NCBI GenBank assembly: GCA_963792415.1
Contig: CAWBVY010000006.1
Span: 480,001-544,000, forward strand
Length of the DNA stretch: 64,000 nt
Source of the DNA: Candidatus Deferrimicrobiaceae bacterium
GTDB taxonomy: Bacteria; Desulfobacterota; Deferrimicrobia; Deferrimicrobiales; Deferrimicrobiaceae
Direction of reading: 5' to 3'
Shown here: positions 55,892 through 63,562 of the stretch, in pieces
Layout of the letters: each line of letters starts with the position of its first letter
How positions within the stretch are numbered: position 1 is the first letter of the stretch
Notes under the pieces: model-generated
Told to the model about the DNA's origin: nothing
Databases searched by the model: none
The model's input: the letters and a program-made list of their open reading frames with translations, nothing else
Position numbers and translations under genes: made by a program

Positions 55892-57802
55892 TCAGCGGGC
55901 CCTGTTGCCCTGGCCCTGCTCCAGCTGCTTAAGGCGGCCGCGCAGGTACGGATCGTTCACCTCCTCCAACCCCATGCGCAGGCTTTCAATCGCCCCCTTG
56001 CGATCCCCCATCATCAGGTACATGTTGGCCATCGTCTGGTAGGCGACGACCGGGGAGACACCGAGAAAGGTGTAATGATAGGCCTCCCGGATGATGTGCC
56101 TCGGCAGGATCCCCTTCGGGATCTCATGGGCCTTGACGTACCCTCGCAGTTCCGGAGTGTTGCGGACGAAGATGACGAACAGGCCGTCGGAGAAGACCAG
56201 CGACCAGTTCGGGTCGTTGGCGAGAAGGGGCACGATGGGGAGGATCATCCCCGAGGAGTCCATCGTCTTCAGCACCATGTACGTGATCCCGTACTTGTCG
56301 ATGACCCCCTCCCACCCGGGCATCCCCCCGGTGACCGACTGGTGCTCCATGAACACCTGCTGGTTGTACGTCCGGCCGTCGAGAAAGGTAAGGGCGCCAG
56401 GGTAGAGCTGCCAGTCGAGGAACCCGCCGATGTCGAAGAAGTTGAACATCTTTCCCGGGACGGGATTCCTCCGAAGGAATTCCGCCGCCTTGAAGGAGAA
56501 CTTGTGCTCCGTGATTCCCACGCCGTACTCCAACTGGGAGAAGGAGAACGCGAGCGTTGTTCCGCCGAAGGCGACGAGGGCGAGGACGACGACGCCGATG
56601 AGGATCGCGTGGACCGCTGCGAAGCGCGGACGGGGATCGGGTCGAACGGCGACCGCCGCCGGTTGAGGGCGCTTCTTCCCCTTTTTCTGCCGTTTCTCTT
56701 CCGGCGCCTCCGCTTTGGGTGTCACCTTGGCGGAAAACCATCCCGCCGCCTCCGACAGGAATCCGGTCAGGTGAAGCGATACCCCGGGAGAGAGGAAGAG
56801 TCCCATCATCGACACGGCCCGCGCCGAACCCCACGCCCCCTTGAATGCGATGGCGAACAGGAAGAGGTCGAGAAGGTAGACACGGCGCCCCGCCATTCCC
56901 AGGCAGAGGGACACCGCGGCGAAGACGACCGCAGCCTTGAAGTATATGTAGAATCCGGTCCCCTTCACCGGGGTCAGCTCCGAGATCGACATCAAGATGT
57001 TATTGGTGTTCCCTCCCGCTCCCCGGGAGATCATGTGGAGCGGCGCCAGCAGCCAGCCGTAGCCGTGCGGGTTCAGGCCGGAGAGGACGAGACCCGCGAC
57101 GCCCGTAACCAGGGGGGGGAGGATCCACGTCCGAAGCCTCGCCCACTGGAACTCCTTCTTCCAGGCCGCCCGGACGAGGGCGTCGGCGAAAAACGCGCCG
57201 TAGAGGCCGAACGCCATCAGGTAGGTCGGGTGACTGTTGGCCCACACGAGGATCATCGGGGGGAAAAGGTAGATCAGTTTTTTGCGGCTCCCGAAGTAAT
57301 ACTCGCTCAGGAGGAAGATCGTCATGGCGGTGAACAGGTACGTGAAGATCTCCGGCCGTGGCTGGATTCGGATGCGGAGGAACCCCGAGAACGCGAAGAT
57401 GGCAAGGACCGCGAGGAGGGGGTGCGCCCCGCGAAGCACCATGGCCCGGTAAAGGAAGAGGAAGATCCCGAAGACGACCGCCCAGACGAGGAACGAGGCC
57501 CCGTACTCCCCTGTCGCGGCGAACACCAGGTACAGAACCGCCTGGAACCCCCACTCGCCGCCGCTCCCGTTCTCCATCCCGAGGGACGGGTAGTTCCAAT
57601 GCTCGATCGACGGGATCTCTTGCTGCTTGACGATGAACCTTCCCAACGCGATGTGCGTCCCGAAGTCGCTCGTGAAGATCTTCGTGAGCATCGGCAGCGT
57701 GATGAGGAAGAGAAGGGTGAAGGCGACGATGTTCAGTTCCTTCGGGGTGAGGTCCCACCAGCGGCGTGGCGCACCGCCGGCTTCGAGCACCGGTTCCGCC
57801 AT
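55892..57802 (-). CDS. Polytopic membrane protein, putative GT-C fold glycosyltransferase with C-terminal TPR-like helices
   Basis: SDFGTHIALGR, RIQPRPEIF, WANSH, ISEL, FNFFDIGGFLDW...FLDGR; more than ten TMs. Confidence 0.65.
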   Translation of the reverse strand: MAEPVLEAGGAPRRWWDLTPKELNIVAFTLLFLITLPMLTKIFTSDFGTHIALGRFIVKQQEIPSIEHWNYPSLGMENGSGGEWGFQAVLYLVFAATGEYGASFLVWAVVFGIFLFLYRAMVLRGAHPLLAVLAIFAFSGFLRIRIQPRPEIFTYLFTAMTIFLLSEYYFGSRKKLIYLFPPMILVWANSHPTYLMAFGLYGAFFADALVRAAWKKEFQWARLRTWILPPLVTGVAGLVLSGLNPHGYGWLLAPLHMISRGAGGNTNNILMSISELTPVKGTGFYIYFKAAVVFAAVSLCLGMAGRRVYLLDLFLFAIAFKGAWGSARAVSMMGLFLSPGVSLHLTGFLSEAAGWFSAKVTPKAEAPEEKRQKKGKKRPQPAAVAVRPDPRPRFAAVHAILIGVVVLALVAFGGTTLAFSFSQLEYGVGITEHKFSFKAAEFLRRNPVPGKMFNFFDIGGFLDWQLYPGALTFLDGRTYNQQVFMEHQSVTGGMPGWEGVIDKYGITYMVLKTMDSSGMILPIVPLLANDPNWSLVFSDGLFVIFVRNTPELRGYVKAHEIPKGILPRHIIREAYHYTFLGVSPVVAYQTMANMYLMMGDRKGAIESLRMGLEEVNDPYLRGRLKQLEQGQGNRAR

Positions 57803-57828: not shown

Positions 57829-58791
57829 TCATCTCCGGATACCTCGCTGGGATTTTCTTCCGGGGGAATGCTTCCGGGCGCTACGCCTTCCGACGGCGGC
57901 TCGCGAACATGAAGATATCATAGGGTCGACGTCAGTGGGCGGGCGCCCCCGTGGCGCTGCCGGCAACGGGGCCGGGAGGGCGGCATTGCCGAACGGCCGC
58001 CGGTGAAACACCGTGGTGAGCTTGAGGCTCGGGCACCGGGTGCAGTCGAGGCAGCGCAGGCAGTCCGGGTCGGTCGGGTTCCGGTCGGGACGGATGTCGA
58101 CCGGGCAGAGATCCTGACACTTCCCGCACCGCGTGCAGGTGTCGGGATCCCAGGCGAGCTGCAGGAAGCTCGACTTGTTGAACAGGGAGAAGATCGCACC
58201 GAGGGGGCAGATCGCCCGGCAGAAGGGGCGTTTTACCATCGTCGACGTCGTGACGAAGAAGAGCACGATCGCGATCTTGACCCAGAACAGCGACCGGACC
58301 ATCGAGCGGATGCCGGCGTTCATCGTGACCCACGGAAGCCCGCCCATCAGCGTTCCCACGGGACACAGCTTCGAGAACCAGTTCTCGTGGGTGAGATACG
58401 GGATGACGAACACCAGCCCGGCCAGGACGGCATACCGCAGATACCGCGTCCAGTGCGGCAGGGACGCCTTCCACCCCCGGAACTTGTACAGGAGATCCTG
58501 TAGGGCGCCGAAGGGGCACAGGGTCCCGCACGTCATCCGCCCCACGGACGCGCCGACGACCGAAAGGGTCCCGACCGCGTACCAGGAGACGTTCCCGCCC
58601 GCCGCGAAATGCTGCAGCGTGCCGATGGGACAGGAGAGCAGCGCGGAGGGGCAGGCGTAGCAGTTCAGCAACGGGGTGCAGACGCTCTTCATCGGCCCCT
58701 GGTAGAGCGACGTCGACAGGAACCCGGGAAGCCAGGCGTTGGGAAGGACGGCCCCCAACCCCTGGAAGATCCGTCGTTTCAGATATCTCAC
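57829..58791 (-). CDS. Membrane 4Fe-4S binding protein (NapH/YccM-like)
   Basis: CTPLLNCYACP...CPIGTLQ, GRMTCGTLCPFG, FCRAICPLG, CTRCGKCQDLCP, CLRCLDC; C-terminal tail may be over-long. Confidence 0.88.
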   Translation of the reverse strand: MRYLKRRIFQGLGAVLPNAWLPGFLSTSLYQGPMKSVCTPLLNCYACPSALLSCPIGTLQHFAAGGNVSWYAVGTLSVVGASVGRMTCGTLCPFGALQDLLYKFRGWKASLPHWTRYLRYAVLAGLVFVIPYLTHENWFSKLCPVGTLMGGLPWVTMNAGIRSMVRSLFWVKIAIVLFFVTTSTMVKRPFCRAICPLGAIFSLFNKSSFLQLAWDPDTCTRCGKCQDLCPVDIRPDRNPTDPDCLRCLDCTRCPSLKLTTVFHRRPFGNAALPAPLPAAPRGRPPTDVDPMISSCSRAAVGRRSARKHSPGRKSQRGIRR

Positions 58792-58808
58792 GGGATCACC
58801 CGATCCCG
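58791..58808 (-). promoter_or_regulatory. Candidate bacterial SECIS hairpin
   Basis: CGGGATC-GGGT-GATCCCG: 7-bp stem with G-rich tetraloop starting 11 nt after the in-frame UGA. Confidence 0.65.
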
Positions 58809-58936
58809 ATGCACGACAGTCAAAGCAGCGCGCCGTTGATCAGCACCTCCGCGATCTCCTTCCGGAAGATGCCGAGCATAAGAGCCGAGACGGCCAGCAC
58901 GGCCGTGACCAGAAAGGCGACCGGGCGTCCCTTCAT
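58796..58936 (-). CDS. Putative selenocysteine-containing membrane microprotein (CD1871A-like CxxC family, here UxxC)
   Basis: MKGRPVAFLVTAVLAVSALMLGIFRKEIAEVLINGALL-TGA-LSCIGIG-stop; TGA at 58822-58820 occupies the first Cys position of CxxCIGIG; G-rich RBS; SECIS-like hairpin follows. Confidence 0.82.
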
Positions 58937-58955
58937 GCCCCCCCCGAACCCGGGA

Positions 58956-59795
58956 TCAGCCTCCGCCGTAGGAGTGCAGGCCGGAGAGAAGGAGGTTGAC
59001 GCCGAGGTAGCACATGATCGTCGCCAGGAACCCGACGATGGAGAGGATGGCGGCGCGCTTGCCGTGCCACCCGCGGGTTACCCGCGCGTGGAGGAACGCC
59101 GCGTAGATCAGCCAGATGATCAGGGACCAGGTTTCCTTCGGGTCCCACGACCAGTAGGTCCCCCAGGCGTAGTTCGCCCAGGCCGCGCCGGTGATGATCC
59201 CTACGGTGAGGAACGGGAATCCCCAGATGATCGACCGGTAGACCAGTTCGTCGAGCATCTTGCACGCCGGCAGAAGGCCCACGACCCCTTCGGAGATCTT
59301 CGCATTTTCCTGCCGGGCCTTCAGCAGGTACATCACGGCCACCCCGGCGGAGACGGCGAACGCCGCGTACCCGACGAAGCAGGTGATGACGTGGGCGTGG
59401 AGCCAGTACGACTGGAGGGCGGGCACCAGCGGCTGGATGCTGCTGTCGTTATAGACGGCGAAGACCATCGTGAGGAAGGCGATCGGCATCACGAAGCCGC
59501 CGAGGGTCCGGTTCCGGTACTTCCTCTCCACGACCAGGTAGAAGAGGTTCACCGACCAGGCGAAGAAGACGAGCGACTCGTAAAGATTCGTGACGGGGAT
59601 GCGACCGATCCCCATCTGGTACGACTCGTACCAGCGCACCCCGAGCGCCGCGGTGGATACAACCGCCCCGAGGAGGCAGACCCAGGTGCCCATGACGCCG
59701 AGCTTCTCGTTTTTCGCGTAGAGGGCGCCGAGGTACATGGCGGACGCCACACCGAACAGGACCGTGGTGAGATTGAACAGGATGACGTTGCTCAT
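58956..59795 (-). CDS. ccsA: Cytochrome c biogenesis protein CcsA/ResC (System II)
   Basis: PVTNLYESL, LQSYWLHAHV, GAAWANYAWGTYWSWDPKETW, GLHSY. Confidence 0.96.
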   Translation of the reverse strand: MSNVILFNLTTVLFGVASAMYLGALYAKNEKLGVMGTWVCLLGAVVSTAALGVRWYESYQMGIGRIPVTNLYESLVFFAWSVNLFYLVVERKYRNRTLGGFVMPIAFLTMVFAVYNDSSIQPLVPALQSYWLHAHVITCFVGYAAFAVSAGVAVMYLLKARQENAKISEGVVGLLPACKMLDELVYRSIIWGFPFLTVGIITGAAWANYAWGTYWSWDPKETWSLIIWLIYAAFLHARVTRGWHGKRAAILSIVGFLATIMCYLGVNLLLSGLHSYGGG

Positions 59796-59832: not shown

Positions 59833-61197
59833 TCATTGGCCTGTCGCCTTCACGCCGGTCTGTAGTTTCTCGAATCTCTTCTCGAAGGCAAGCCGGTTGC
59901 GGCTGGCGGACCCCGCGAGGACGACCTCGACACGGCCGTCGGTCCCCTGCGCGAGGCGGACCCAGACGCGCTGGTGCGAGAGGAAGAACGCCATGATCAG
60001 CCCGATCACCATCAGGGCGCACCCCAGCCAGACGATGTTCACCCCGGGGTCCTTCGCGACCTGGAGCCCGGTGAACATCTTCGAACTTAAGCCCCGGAAG
60101 GAGAATACCAGGGAGTCGGCGCGTTGCCGGTCGAGGTCGGGTCGGCGCTGGACGAGCCAGAACGAGGCGGCCGGCTGCCCGGGCTTCTCGACGACCACCT
60201 GGAGGGCCGGACCGTTTCCCTGGAAGTTCTGATTGTAGTTCACCCCGGTCACGATCCCGTAGCCGTCGATCGGAACCGGCTCGTTGGCCGCGAGGGAGAG
60301 CATGTTCACCGGGGTCCCGTCCTTGCGGGCCACCGCCACCTGGGCCTTCGCGCCGCCCCCCGCCTGCCCGTAGCTCGACTGGTAGAACCAGATCCCCTTG
60401 TACTGCAGCGGGTCGTTCACCACGATCGTCTTCCGGACCACTTCCCGCCCCCCGTCGAGGACGCTGAGGTCGGATTTGTACGCCTTGGGCTGGCCGCTCG
60501 GGTACGTCTCGACGCTGAAGGAGTTGCACCGAAGCGTGAATCCGAGGTCCTGAATCAGGGTCCCCCCCCGGACGGGGACCTGCGTGATCGCGTCCCCCTC
60601 GGGGATGTTCACGTACCCCTTGAAACCGGCGACGTTGCCGACGATCGCCCCGATGAAGATGATGATGATGGAGAGGTGGGTCACATAGACGCCGAACCGG
60701 GAGGCCACACCGGTCTCGGCGTACAGGTGCACCTCGCCGCCTTCCTCGGTGACTTTCGGCTTCGCGAAGGCGCCTGAGAGCGTCTCCGCGTATTTCCCTG
60801 TCCACTCCGAAACGGTCCCCTTCTTCTTCCACCGGTCCGAGAGCGACAGCGATTTTTCGAGGCTCCCGTCGAGCTTCGTCCGCGGGTTCCGCACGACCTT
60901 GAGCATCTTCGGGAAACGGTCGATGGTGCAGCAGGTCAGGTTCACGGTGAACAGGACGAGAATCAGCAGGAACCACTTGGAGTGGTACATATCGAACAGG
61001 TTGATCCGGTCCATGAGGGCGAACGCCCAGTCCTCGTAGATCTGGTGGTACTTCTCGGGGGGCTGGTTCTGCTCGATGATCGTGCCGAGGATCGACGTGG
61101 ACGCAAGTACGATCAGGGTGAAGATCGCAAGCTTGACGGAGATAAAGAAGTCCCACACCCGATCCATCGGGGATGGAGTGCGTTTCTCATCAGCCAT
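59833..61197 (-). CDS. resB: Cytochrome c biogenesis protein ResB/CcsB
   Basis: FISVKLAI, SILGTIIEQ, DMYHSKWF, YVTHLSIIIIFIG, VNDPLQYKG, KDPGV. Confidence 0.93.
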   Translation of the reverse strand: MADEKRTPSPMDRVWDFFISVKLAIFTLIVLASTSILGTIIEQNQPPEKYHQIYEDWAFALMDRINLFDMYHSKWFLLILVLFTVNLTCCTIDRFPKMLKVVRNPRTKLDGSLEKSLSLSDRWKKKGTVSEWTGKYAETLSGAFAKPKVTEEGGEVHLYAETGVASRFGVYVTHLSIIIIFIGAIVGNVAGFKGYVNIPEGDAITQVPVRGGTLIQDLGFTLRCNSFSVETYPSGQPKAYKSDLSVLDGGREVVRKTIVVNDPLQYKGIWFYQSSYGQAGGGAKAQVAVARKDGTPVNMLSLAANEPVPIDGYGIVTGVNYNQNFQGNGPALQVVVEKPGQPAASFWLVQRRPDLDRQRADSLVFSFRGLSSKMFTGLQVAKDPGVNIVWLGCALMVIGLIMAFFLSHQRVWVRLAQGTDGRVEVVLAGSASRNRLAFEKRFEKLQTGVKATGQ

Positions 61198-61227
61198 GCG
61201 GGCCACCCTCAATTATTCGGAATAAAT

Positions 61228-61353: not shown

Positions 61354-61701
61354 CTACTTCTTGTGGCAGCCGTCACACTTGGTGGGGCCTTTGGCCATCT
61401 TCTGGTGGCACCCCTTGCACTTCGTGTGCATGGAGTCCTTCAAAGAGACTGCGTCGCCCTTCTTCTCGGCCTTGTGGCAGGCGAAGCACGACTGCTCCTT
61501 GCCCGCTGCGTCCTTGTGGTGGCACTCCGCGCACTTGATGCCCAGCTTTTCCGCGTGCGCCTTGTGGGGAAATACCACCGGCGACTTGGACTTCTGGACG
61601 TCCTTGATCGTAGTGCTGTCAGGAGCATCCGCCGCGACGATCATGCTGGCCGAAAACACCGTCATCATCACGACTGCCATCAACATCGCGAATTTCTTCA
61701 T
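61354..61701 (-). CDS. Periplasmic tetraheme cytochrome c3 family protein
   Basis: Signal peptide; VVFPHKAH; CAECHH, CFACH, CKGCH, CDGCH plus four distal His. Confidence 0.93.
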   Translation of the reverse strand: MKKFAMLMAVVMMTVFSASMIVAADAPDSTTIKDVQKSKSPVVFPHKAHAEKLGIKCAECHHKDAAGKEQSCFACHKAEKKGDAVSLKDSMHTKCKGCHQKMAKGPTKCDGCHKK

Positions 61702-61744: not shown

Positions 61745-63562
61745 CTACAGCGATAGATTGCACCGTGCGCACCGTTCCGCTTCCTCGCGCGCGCACCGAT
61801 CCGTAAAGCTTCTTTCGACCTCGTCGAACGTCCGGCGCGCCACTTCGGGAGAGAGCCTTTCCGCCCCGCGCCGAACCCGCCATTCGGGGCGGTCGGTCAC
61901 CTGGGGCTCGGGGCGCCTGCGGTAGTTGTCCCTGTATCGCGCCCTTTTGACCTCTTTGACGGCGAGATCCTCGAAGATATTCAACGCCGCCTCCCGCCCG
62001 GAGGCGGACGCCTCGACCACGGTGCCGGGGCCGCGGACGCAATCACCGCACATATAACCGGCGATTCTAGGTTCCCCCCTGGGGAATTGCAAGCGGAAAA
62101 CGTGGCGTCCCGTGTCCGTGGGCTTCCAGGAGACTCCATCCGGCAGGAACGAGAGGTCGGCCCGGGTTCCGATCGCCATCACGACGGTGTCGGCCGGGAC
62201 CTCGAATTCGCTCCCGGGGACGGTCCGTGGGACGACCCTCCCGTCCGGGTCGAGATCGACCCGCTCCACCTTCAGCGCTTCGAACGCGGCCACCCTTCCA
62301 CCCTTCAGGAGGAAACGGTTCGCCGCGGTGCCCGGAAGGATCTTGGCCCCCTCCGAAACGGCCGCATCGATCTCCCACGCGAACGCCGGCATCGCCTCCC
62401 TGGATTCGAGACAGGCGATCGTCACTTCCGACGCGCCCATCCGGAGAGCGCACCGGGCCGCGTCGATCGCGACGTTCCCGCCGCCGATCACGACCACCCG
62501 CCCGTGGAGCGGGGGAAACCGGTGTTCCCGGACGCGCACGAGGAACGAAAGCGCGTCGTGGAATCCCTGGTCCTCCCCTCCCGCGGCAGGCAGCCGCAGC
62601 GCTTCGCGGGCTCCCACGGCGATCAGGACGGCGTCGAACCCCTCCCCGGCAAGGGAAGGGAACGTCACGTCCTTGCTGAAGGTGACCCCGCCCCGGAAGC
62701 GCACACCCCGGGCAAGGATTCGCGTCACGTCCGCGAGGAGCGCGTCCGCGGGGAACCGGAACTCCGCGGCGCCGTACCGCATCATCCCGCCGGGTTCCCC
62801 GTACGGATCGAACACCGTGACGATGGCGCCGAGCCGCGCAAGCGTGTCGGCGGCCGACAATCCCGACGCGCCGGCGCCGACGACCGCCACCCTGGGTCCC
62901 CGGACCTGGCCGCTTTCCCCGGTGCCCGGGAAAATTCCCGCCGCGTACCCAAGGTCCGCCGCGTACCGCTTGATCGCCATGATGGAAATCGGCGCGCCGA
63001 ATTCGTTCCGCACGCACACCTGCTCGCACGGATGTGGACAGGCGCGGCCGCAGAACGCCGCGAAGGGAAGTCTGTCGTGCACCAGCGCCAGCGCCTCGAG
63101 AGGCCGTCCTTCGCGCACGAGGGCGATGTAGTCCGGAACGCGGATGCGGGCCGGGCAGGCGCTCTCGCACGGAGCGGCGGCTTCGCGGGGGCCGCGCCGC
63201 GCGTCGACATACGCCATCCACCAGATCACGCCCGCCTCTACCAGGAGGAAGCCGTGTCCGTAGGTGATCCCGGATCCCACGTTGAGGACGAGACCCAGGG
63301 TCAGGGGAAGGAGGGCCGCCCAGAAGACTCCGTAGGCGATCCGGCCCGAGTAGAGATGCCCGAGCCCCGGGTAGACGAGCGAAAGGACCCCCGCCGTTTT
63401 GCGGATCCGCTCCCGCCCGATCTCCCACAGGAGACGGTCGCGCTGATCCAGCCGGCCGGAGCAGTCCCGGCACCGCTCCTCCTCGCCCGGGCGCAGGACC
63501 TCGCAGAGAACGCAATCCTTGTAGCCCGTTCGGAGGAGGTTTTCCGGAAGGAGGAAATCCAT
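61745..63562 (-). CDS. GltD/NfnB-like FAD/4Fe-4S oxidoreductase fused to an N-terminal Cys motif and TM anchor
   Basis: CVLC...CRDC, SLVYPGLGHLY plus TMs, then APCESACP, FCGRACPHPCEQVC, VGAGASGL, GGGNVAID, EEAERCARC. Confidence 0.85.
   Translation of the reverse strand: MDFLLPENLLRTGYKDCVLCEVLRPGEEERCRDCSGRLDQRDRLLWEIGRERIRKTAGVLSLVYPGLGHLYSGRIAYGVFWAALLPLTLGLVLNVGSGITYGHGFLLVEAGVIWWMAYVDARRGPREAAAPCESACPARIRVPDYIALVREGRPLEALALVHDRLPFAAFCGRACPHPCEQVCVRNEFGAPISIMAIKRYAADLGYAAGIFPGTGESGQVRGPRVAVVGAGASGLSAADTLARLGAIVTVFDPYGEPGGMMRYGAAEFRFPADALLADVTRILARGVRFRGGVTFSKDVTFPSLAGEGFDAVLIAVGAREALRLPAAGGEDQGFHDALSFLVRVREHRFPPLHGRVVVIGGGNVAIDAARCALRMGASEVTIACLESREAMPAFAWEIDAAVSEGAKILPGTAANRFLLKGGRVAAFEALKVERVDLDPDGRVVPRTVPGSEFEVPADTVVMAIGTRADLSFLPDGVSWKPTDTGRHVFRLQFPRGEPRIAGYMCGDCVRGPGTVVEASASGREAALNIFEDLAVKEVKRARYRDNYRRRPEPQVTDRPEWRVRRGAERLSPEVARRTFDEVERSFTDRCAREEAERCARCNLSL

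Follow-up and report, generated by a model that had tools for sequence, protein, structure and literature searches.

The window analysed here is a stretch of 64,000 nucleotides (nt) from the genome of a Candidatus Deferrimicrobiaceae bacterium (GenBank assembly GCA_963792415.1, contig CAWBVY010000006.1, positions 480,001 to 544,000 of the forward strand). On its minus strand, between a gene for a cytochrome c synthase subunit and a gene for an iron-sulfur (Fe-S) membrane protein, lies a very short gene that, in all probability, encodes a membrane microprotein containing selenocysteine (Sec), with a candidate Sec insertion sequence (SECIS) that crosses the true stop codon. An earlier reading of the DNA (the original prediction) had described it as a 46-codon minus-strand open reading frame (ORF) with one transmembrane (TM) helix and the ending UGA-LSCIGIG-UGA, followed after a few nt by the next gene. 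The window sequence, its ORFs and their translations bear this description out, and the GTG start codon of the next gene, at 58791, is located 4 nt past the true stop. The features of the locus are the following:

58796..58936, minus strand: microprotein gene, 46 codons and the true stop UGA (58798..58796), matching family NF040920 and conserved in relatives; Met1 (58936..58934), Sec39, Cys42 and Gly46 are the landmarks of its putative product
58820..58822, minus strand: in-frame UGA, codon 39, predicted to be read as Sec; TGA in 52/52 TGA forms, TGC/TGT in 20/20 Cys forms
58791..58808, minus strand: SECIS-like hairpin, with the 5' arm at 58808..58802, the loop GGGU at 58801..58798 and the 3' arm at 58797..58791
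57829..58791, minus strand: downstream partner gene, encoding a 320-residue NapH/MauN-like polytopic membrane protein with a Fer4_5 domain
58956..59795, minus strand: ccsA/ccsB, System II cytochrome c synthase subunit, directly upstream of the microprotein gene (TIGR03144, 300 bits; PF01578)
59833..61212, minus strand: resB/ccsB-type cytochrome c biogenesis protein (PF05140 ResB, E = 2.3e-110)
61354..61701, minus strand: tetrahaem cytochrome c3-type gene, with which the same-strand cluster begins (PF02085, NF045722)

An ATG at 58936 opens the frame MKGRPVAFLVTAVLAVSALMLGIFRKEIAEVLINGALL, which runs to a TGA at 58822..58820; this 38-residue ORF (58936..58820, minus strand) is included in the ORF listing. 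Past the first TGA the codons CTG TCG TGC ATC GGG ATC GGG, encoding LSCIGIG, lead to a second TGA at 58798..58796. The read-through product would begin with M-K-G-R-P, contain one TM helix (the hydrophobic stretch near the N-terminus covers residues ~6-24) and continue as ...NGALL-UGA-LSCIGIG-UGA, so that its C-terminal motif is L-U-L-S-C-I-G-I-G.

The fate of the codon in relatives was followed in two collections. A six-frame search of 41 related genomes with the read-through peptide gave 30 good loci, 26 with TGA and four with TGC at the same codon, and all 30 continue with L-[SA]-C-[IV]-G-[IV]-G-stop. A profile search of a phylum sample (401 genomes, 254 genera) found the family in 92 genomes belonging to 62 genera; the 32 matches with an internal TGA (30 genomes) all carry it at the codon-39 column, and the rest are uninterrupted Cys forms. 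The original prediction had expected homologues to align Cys to the TGA. They do: TGA occupies this codon in 52/52 TGA-form relatives and a Cys codon (TGC or TGT) occupies it in 20/20 Cys forms examined, namely four from the related genomes, two obtained along with loci and, of the others, the 14 with the highest scores. In the window's own family the five Cys forms do not make up one clade, and a tree of the neighbouring gene indicates at least two independent switches on well-supported branches. Public protein sets gave 42 hits, all unnamed or called 'hypothetical protein', of which 24 are full-length with Cys39 and 18 are stubs of 38 or 44 residues ending in ...NGALL. A scan of 1.84 billion representatives returned 222 matching proteins (E <= 1e-3); among the 150 of these 222 that were listed, 15 end one profile position ahead of the Sec column.

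The sequence after the UGA was compared among the 52 TGA forms. The first residue is Leu in 48 of them (written with four different codons) and the second is Ser in 47 (TCG, TCC, TCT, TCA, AGC and AGT all occur), followed by Cys, Ile and Gly in 52/52, by I, V or L, and by Gly and a stop, again in 52/52; the Cys, Ile and Gly codons vary at their third positions. Between the 24 distinct tails we counted 610 synonymous and 214 non-synonymous codon differences. This substitution pattern is that of coding sequence, and the LSCIGIG tail, whose conservation had been put forward as a check, is kept as L-S-C-I-G-[IV]-G with mostly synonymous changes. A sequencing origin of the TGA was addressed with public runs. 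Contigs from two DNA and two metatranscriptome runs (four studies), covering 58796-58822, have TGA at both sites and no other letter there, never TGC or TGT; two of them carry a Ser-to-Ala variant (U-L-A-C) known also from relatives. Going by these contigs, the TGA is not an assembly error. The contigs from the RNA libraries span ccsA, the microprotein gene and the start of the Fe-S gene, which is compatible with transcription across the three.

The original prediction had also claimed a perfect 7-bp hairpin starting 11 nt after the first UGA and containing the true stop. The hairpin CGGGAUC-GGGU-GAUCCCG is present at exactly this distance, its loop and 3' arm hold the stop UGA, and the partner's GTG (58791) begins with the last G of the hairpin, but only six of the seven pairs are conserved. 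This core consists of the inner 6 bp (58807..58802 with 58797..58792), whereas the outer C-G pair is seen in 9 of the 41 distinct sequences. At 11-12 nt after the UGA a stem begins in 52/52 TGA forms; its length is at least 5 bp in every case and at least 6 bp in 51, and the loops begin GG or CGGG (GGGU, GGUU, GGC or CGGGUA); a stem of at least 6 bp at that place was found in 0/20 Cys forms. The mean minimum free energy of the 30-nt stretch is -10.5 kcal/mol for TGA forms, -4.6 kcal/mol for TGC forms and -3.4 kcal/mol for TGT forms.

Covariation was analysed in an alignment of 48 TGA forms (41 distinct sequences), from which four TGA forms were omitted because their 3-nt loop shifts the 3' arm by one base. 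Over the six core positions pairing holds in 244 of 246 cells, and sliding it by 1-3 columns leaves only 35-58% of cells paired. Core pair 19-28 is G-C in 30 sequences, A-U in six and G-U in five, and another core pair is G-C in 35, G-U in five and A-U in one; the covariation score was reached by 0/500 shuffles. Compensated variants include GGGUUA-GGC-UAACCC (with a UAA stop), GGAAUC/GAUUCC, GGAGUC/GACUCC and CGGAUUA-GGA-UAAUCCG, and in the omitted forms and in loci from the DNA-pattern scan described below the double compensations include the stop codon itself. Thus the covariation that had been called for exists, and the hairpin is specific to TGA forms. A scan of 58600-59000 against Rfam gave two noise hits to snoRNA models, and no bacterial SECIS model was matched. 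In the window's family an A.C mismatch interrupts the middle of the stem in 5/5 Cys forms. The two in-stem GGG codons are almost invariant among Sec forms (51/52 and 47/52) and vary freely among Cys forms (13/20 and 9/20).

All components of the Sec machinery on which the prediction depended were found in the genome: selA (555 bits), selB (324 bits), a selD with an in-frame UGA and tRNA-SeC(tca). The selD gene (C4:526405-527208) itself encodes a selenoprotein, with ...SSCAGUASKLGQG, and two Sec-type fdhA genes (C7:185155 and C8:77413) have the classical ...U-H-S... site. The SECIS elements of these three genes lie 12-16 nt after the UGA and have the apical loops GGU, GGC and GGG; the GG-initial loops of the microprotein hairpins agree with them, as with the earlier statement that a bacterial SECIS lies directly 3' of the UGA with G in its apical loop. 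The match of the FdhA model to the fdhA gene on contig C8 is broken into three successive parts (C8:76849-78675, 78632-79354 and 79350-79961), which suggests frameshifts, a split gene or assembly errors. Among the 30 Sec-form genomes of the phylum sample, selA was found in 25, and the other five have selB above the cut-off. Four genomes of one genus, g14 (G039, G117, G151 and G080; 61-79% complete), gave no selA even at E <= 1e-3; two of them (G039 and G151) have two selB-like genes each above the cut-off, and in three of the four the Sec microprotein ends with a UAA stop.

The original prediction had placed the microprotein with the small CD1871A-type proteins, and this kinship is supported in part. 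When Sec is replaced by Cys, the read-through peptide aligns to NF040920 (CD1871A family CXXC motif-containing protein) with E = 9.7e-6 over positions 2-38 of 38, it has the CxxCIGxG end, and it shares the architecture of the family (a small protein with one TM helix and a C-terminal CXXC); its score, however, is below the curated cut-off. The natural Cys form of a congeneric genome scores 22 bits, and 43 of 53 natural Cys-form relatives match the model at E <= 0.01 (best E = 1.1e-15). No other model of the NCBIfam library, which includes selenoprotein families, was matched at E <= 1. Membership in the TsoA family (LULAXC, NF045695), considered as another candidate, was rejected, as that model too was not matched at E <= 1. 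On the strength of the end-to-end match and of the 43 of 53 relatives, we treat the microprotein as belonging to a divergent Sec branch of the CD1871A family, and we read it as a divergent, Sec-form member.

To outline the distribution of the Sec form, a DNA pattern was scanned over 185,579 species genomes. It occurred in 95 stretches, and of the 80 loci examined 79 are family members; the remaining one, from Methanobrevibacter, was rejected as a chance match. Most loci are labelled Deltaproteobacteria/Thermodesulfobacteriota (Candidatus Deferrimicrobium, Deferrisomatales, Desulfobaccales, Syntrophobacteraceae), and a few are labelled Bacteroidota, Cytophagia, Eisenbacteria, Coatesbacteria, Zixiibacteriota or KSB1. 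The genomes scanned overlap with those of the phylum sample, so the two sets of counts are not independent. In 75 of the 79 members a stem of 5 bp or more occupies the usual position, including two (L120 and L133) in which other arms make it. Two loci labelled Actinomycetota (L125 and L136) and one labelled Limnocylindria (L171) encode microproteins near-identical to Deferrimicrobium-type forms, and their contigs may be mis-binned.

Several results weigh against reading the locus as a Sec-form CD1871A gene with a SECIS. The NF040920 score, 25.4 bits, falls short of the curated cut-off of 32. Folded alone, the 61-nt stretch has z = -1.06, and 32/200 shuffles fold at least as well; since the single-sequence fold is not significant, support for the hairpin is taken from the comparison with relatives. 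The hairpin is short and its 5' arm falls in the codons for the conserved I-G-[IV]-G, so that conservation of this arm is confounded with coding. A scan of 58600-59000 against Rfam gave two noise hits to snoRNA models, and no bacterial SECIS model was matched. Four of the 79 DNA-pattern members (L138, L167, L140 and L168) lack any stem of 5 bp or more in the usual position, and L120 and L133 build theirs from other arms; beyond the UGA each of the six shows a fold other than the usual one, longer or bulged, and these folds may represent a variant SECIS geometry. The proteins of these six non-canonical Sec forms end in ...GNTLULSCIGVG* and other tails, and their labels include Desulfobaccales, Cytophagia and KSB1. 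The five Sec-form genomes in which selA was not found are 61-91% complete, and selA is present in 371/401 phylum genomes, which makes co-occurrence with the Sec machinery a weak test. Finally, the counts given above do not represent independent events, since the relatives share phylogenetic history and some genomes occur in both collections.

Against these points stand the Sec/Cys pairing at one codon, the coding behaviour of the tail, the covarying hairpin and the Sec genes, which together support decoding of the first UGA as Sec, as originally proposed. We consider it very probable that 58936..58796 (minus strand) is a genuine selenoprotein gene. UGA39 would be decoded by SelB and tRNA-Sec through the standard bacterial mechanism, directed by the 6-bp hairpin with its GG-initial apical loop 11-12 nt after the UGA. 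As the Sec codon is only 8 codons from the end, the putative SECIS spans the last four sense codons, the true stop and intergenic bases, and in the window's genus it would extend over the start codon of the partner as well. This overlap of hairpin and start codon may couple translation of the partner to completed Sec insertion.

The partner protein was then characterized as a guide to function. Its Fer4_5 domain (PF12801) is matched with E = 2e-16, and it reaches only 64.9 bits against TIGR02163 (NapH/MauN), for which the cut-off is 213. It contains an N-terminal C-x5-C-x2-C-P-x5-C-P motif, two CX3CP motifs, a C-P-x-G-T motif and two ferredoxin-type 4Fe-4S motifs; nine invariant Cys lie outside the ferredoxin motifs (C38, C44, C47, C54, C88, C92, C143, C191 and C195). 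According to the passages of PMC5928378 on the NapH/NosR/RdhC module, its CX3CP motifs have no assigned function, and disulfide chemistry is judged likelier for them than an Fe-S centre; this view fits a redox-subunit role of the microprotein but does not test it. We scanned the downstream ORFs of 47 loci, after near-identical congeners had been dropped from 69, and found Fer4_5 in 32, the window included. The claim that the microprotein precedes a membrane 4Fe-4S protein thus holds for most loci. In one genome (L073, G358:C1), at 1661-2494, the Sec microprotein is followed by a Thioredoxin_2/DsbA-like protein and preceded by AhpC-TSA/Redoxin. In L034, L035 and L041 (genus g1) the largest downstream ORF, 160-264 nt off, encodes a multihaem cytochrome (Paired_CXXCH_1).

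A complex of the natural Cys-form pair from a congeneric genome was predicted with a score of 0.51, the best of three controls scoring 0.00; at least 78% of contacts recur between the runs, and the pLDDT (predicted local distance difference test) of the partner is at least 72. The mark used for such predictions was reached by 116/157 solved complexes and 2/215 mismatched pairs, but with a score of 0.60 or under it was reached by only 18/157 solved complexes and by both mismatches that passed. The prediction lends weak support to a complex between microprotein and partner.

The order of genes in the minus-strand cluster is cytochrome c3, ResB, CcsA/CcsB, microprotein and NapH-like Fe-S membrane protein. 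Directly upstream of the cytochrome c3 gene lies a gene for a 605-residue protein (61745-63562, minus strand) with Fer4_20 and Pyr_redox_2 (GltD-like NAD(P)H oxidoreductase), of which the N-terminal ~115 residues have no Pfam match; it could serve as electron input to the cluster. Directly after the Fe-S gene a 636-residue ORF (55892-57802, minus strand) has no Pfam match at E <= 1e-5 and looks polytopic by sequence, with a soluble C-terminal part. The polysaccharide genes located further downstream look unrelated.

The genes upstream of the microprotein were compared between the two forms at 41 of 70 ORFs (27 Sec-form and 14 Cys-form loci), with the following results:

AhpC-TSA/Redoxin, mostly fused to tetratricopeptide repeats (TPR), several matching CcmH/CycH TPR: Sec 18/27, Cys 0/14
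CcsA: Sec 3/27, Cys 1/14
ResB: Sec 1/27, Cys 0/14
Trypsin_2: Sec 2/27, Cys 0/14
TPR only: Sec 1/27, Cys 0/14
TrkH: Sec 0/27, Cys 3/14
PilZ: Sec 0/27, Cys 3/14
Thiamine_BP: Sec 0/27, Cys 4/14
Fer4_5: Sec 0/27, Cys 1/14
no family: Sec 2/27, Cys 2/14

CcsA precedes just one Cys form, which belongs to the window's own family. The topology was examined through the charges flanking the hydrophobic stretch. The N-terminal flank carries a net charge of +2.0 and the C-terminal part one of -0.96, and the N-terminal flank is the more positive in 50 of 53 sequences; by the positive-inside rule, we infer that the N-terminus is cytoplasmic and the UxxC/CxxC tail is at the outer face.

Based on this context and topology, we tentatively propose that the microprotein is a periplasm-facing selenylsulfide redox subunit that takes part, alongside the Fe-S membrane protein, in cytochrome c maturation and periplasmic thiol redox, a role that we regard as plausible but far from secure. 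The hydrophobic U-x-x-C-I-G-x-G tail would be positioned at the outer face of the membrane, where the Sec/Cys pair could form a redox-active selenylsulfide, and the microprotein would be a small subunit of the adjoining NapH-like protein. Cytoplasmic Fe-S clusters (or the quinol pool) and periplasmic thiol:disulfide oxidoreductases might exchange reducing equivalents through the pair, and these oxidoreductases would serve cytochrome c maturation (CcsBA/ResB and ResA-like redoxin-TPR proteins). A more specific version is doubtful: the pair would be a previously unrecognised transmembrane (seleno)disulfide reductase, with Fe-S chemistry like that of ferredoxin:thioredoxin reductase or heterodisulfide reductase, feeding periplasmic ResA-like redoxins for cytochrome c maturation. 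Were it true, it would give the CX3CP module of NapH/NosR/RdhC its first concrete function, and the overlap of SECIS and start codon in the window's genus would make synthesis of the Fe-S partner dependent on selenium supply. Taken as a whole, with the Sec microprotein, its hairpin-directed decoding and a redox role offered as a proposal, the explanation given here is the best that we have found and is likely to be right.

The functional part of this explanation has its own counter-evidence. At 15 of the 47 loci the downstream ORF is without Fer4_5 (three multihaem cytochromes, one Thioredoxin_2/DsbA-like protein and eleven with no hit), although some of these are probably wrong picks of the downstream ORF. 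The complex prediction, for its part, counts on this side too. The AlphaFold2 model of the partner is mediocre, with a mean pLDDT of 63.9 and residues 13-53 below 50, and a Foldseek search of this model against the PDB gave 0 matches at E <= 0.001, with only partial similarity to ferredoxin domains and no solved counterpart of the membrane module.

Among other explanations, the one that survives best accepts a real Sec microprotein and takes U-x-x-C as a metal or Fe-S ligand together with Cys residues of the partner, in a structural or metal-handling subunit comparable to the NosR/NapH-type support of periplasmic metalloenzymes. The nine invariant Cys of the partner outside the ferredoxin motifs would suit such a role, the hydrophobic and invariant tail (C-I-G-x-G) suggests tight packing into the partner, Cys forms occur without thiol-redox genes nearby, and PMC13188914 discusses Sec as a possible metal ligand in several selenoproteins described recently. 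However, 22 of the 27 Sec-form loci adjoin thioredoxin-fold or cytochrome c maturation genes, thiol oxidoreductase-like selenoproteins classically have U-x-x-C as their redox motif (PMC13188914, Table 1), and no metal-handling gene was found in the neighbourhoods scanned. We therefore regard a ligand role as unlikely, though as a serious competitor to the selenylsulfide redox subunit.

It is improbable that the microprotein, together with the Fer4_5 protein, stands in for CcdA/DsbD as the sole periplasmic reductant route for System II. The idea arises from the microprotein gene standing directly after resB-ccsA, and from a search in which DsbD_TM/CcdA was not found in this 100%-complete genome with ResB/CcsA and c-type cytochromes (72 kb were outside the search); a DsbD_TM control search was positive in 10/14 reference genomes. 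The unsearched 72 kb could, however, hold ccdA, DsbD_TM is present in 340/401 phylum genomes, and most relatives have CcdA, with matches of E ~1e-43 to 1e-51 in Sec-form genomes of the same genus or family (G017, G255, G002, G133, G360, G384 and G026). Because CcdA is present in Sec-form genomes of the same genus, the pair is not simply a CcdA substitute, and we rejected this as a general explanation; the co-occurrence also tells against the functional part of our own proposal.

The last alternative, in which UGA39 is an ordinary stop ending a 38-residue membrane peptide and the bases beyond it are an RNA element (a translation-control hairpin or a stabiliser), fits the 38-residue form given by gene callers and the overlap of the hairpin with the next gene's start in the window's genus, but is very improbable, as a constraint on the RNA alone leaves unexplained why Ser is written with both TCN and AGY codons and why the codon differences stand at 610 synonymous to 214 non-synonymous, the frame is open and ends at the same codon in 52/52 forms, uninterrupted Cys-form homologues share the C-x-x-C-I-G-x-G end, and distant Sec forms keep the hairpin with the next gene 23-300 nt away.

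As to published selenoproteins, no paper naming CD1871A was found. NF040920 is absent from the available part of PMC13188914, a 2026 review whose Table 1 gives known and predicted prokaryotic selenoprotein families; the accessible portion of Haft and Gwadz (bioRxiv 10.1101/2022.07.06.499078) does not mention CD1871, NF040920 or CIGIG, and that of the deep-Sep paper (PMC12013277) does not mention 'transmembrane', '4Fe-4S' or 'UXXC'. The main text of BSepDB (PMC13326102) contains neither 'NF040920' nor 'CXXC motif', and its supplement, represented mostly by Table S1 and possibly without the family list of Table S2, contains no CD1871A, NF040920 or tail motifs. So far as the literature was searched, we found no listing of the Sec form of the CD1871A family among published selenoprotein families.

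What would be new here is a selenoprotein family of unusual anatomy: 46 residues, membrane-anchored, with a SECIS that crosses the true stop into the next gene. At this length the microprotein would be among the smallest selenoproteins. Gene callers truncate or miss it. Another 79 species-level genomes, most of them from Desulfobacterota, have the Sec form, and adding the microprotein would correct many selenoproteome counts. The microprotein would connect selenium use with cytochrome c maturation and periplasmic thiol redox control, and it offers an experimental way into the CX3CP membrane module of NapH, NosR and RdhC.

Among known systems, CD1871A proteins (NF040920) are the nearest, with ~40-50 residues, one N-terminal TM helix, a C-x-x-C-I-G-x-G end and a position before a Fer4_5-type protein; the family is uncharacterised and its name carries no function. 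The microprotein differs from them in having Sec as the first Cys of the motif, and Sec forms are found in cytochrome c maturation/thiol-redox neighbourhoods. The redox UxxC selenoproteins (Prx-like proteins, thiol:disulfide interchange proteins and the 'UXX-star' proteins of Haft and co-workers, as given in Table 1 of PMC13188914) likewise have a Sec/Cys pair in U-x-x-C and a SelB-type hairpin, whereas the microprotein is without a thioredoxin fold and consists of a 46-residue membrane anchor with a hydrophobic tail. In selenoproteins with Sec near the C-terminus the SECIS also runs past the stop codon. TsoA (NF045695) resembles the microprotein in its local motif, L-U-L-A-x-C in the description given by PMC13188914 compared with L-U-L-S/A-C here, but the spacing of Sec and Cys is off by one residue.

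The partner shares with the NapH/MauN/NosR/RdhC module a polytopic membrane domain, two C-terminal ferredoxin-type 4Fe-4S motifs and a pair of CX3CP motifs. It differs by the extra invariant N-terminal C-x5-C-x2-C-P-x5-C-P and by the Sec/Cys microprotein, and no napAB, nosZ or rdhA lies nearby. The setting, with resB, ccsA and ResA-like redoxin-TPR proteins, and the proposed supply of periplasmic reductant recall CcdA/DsbD with ResA/CcsX. There is no homology to CcdA/DsbD, however, and CcdA co-occurs in most genomes that have the pair; in place of the cysteine relay of that system, the microprotein and its partner would use Fe-S clusters and a selenylsulfide.

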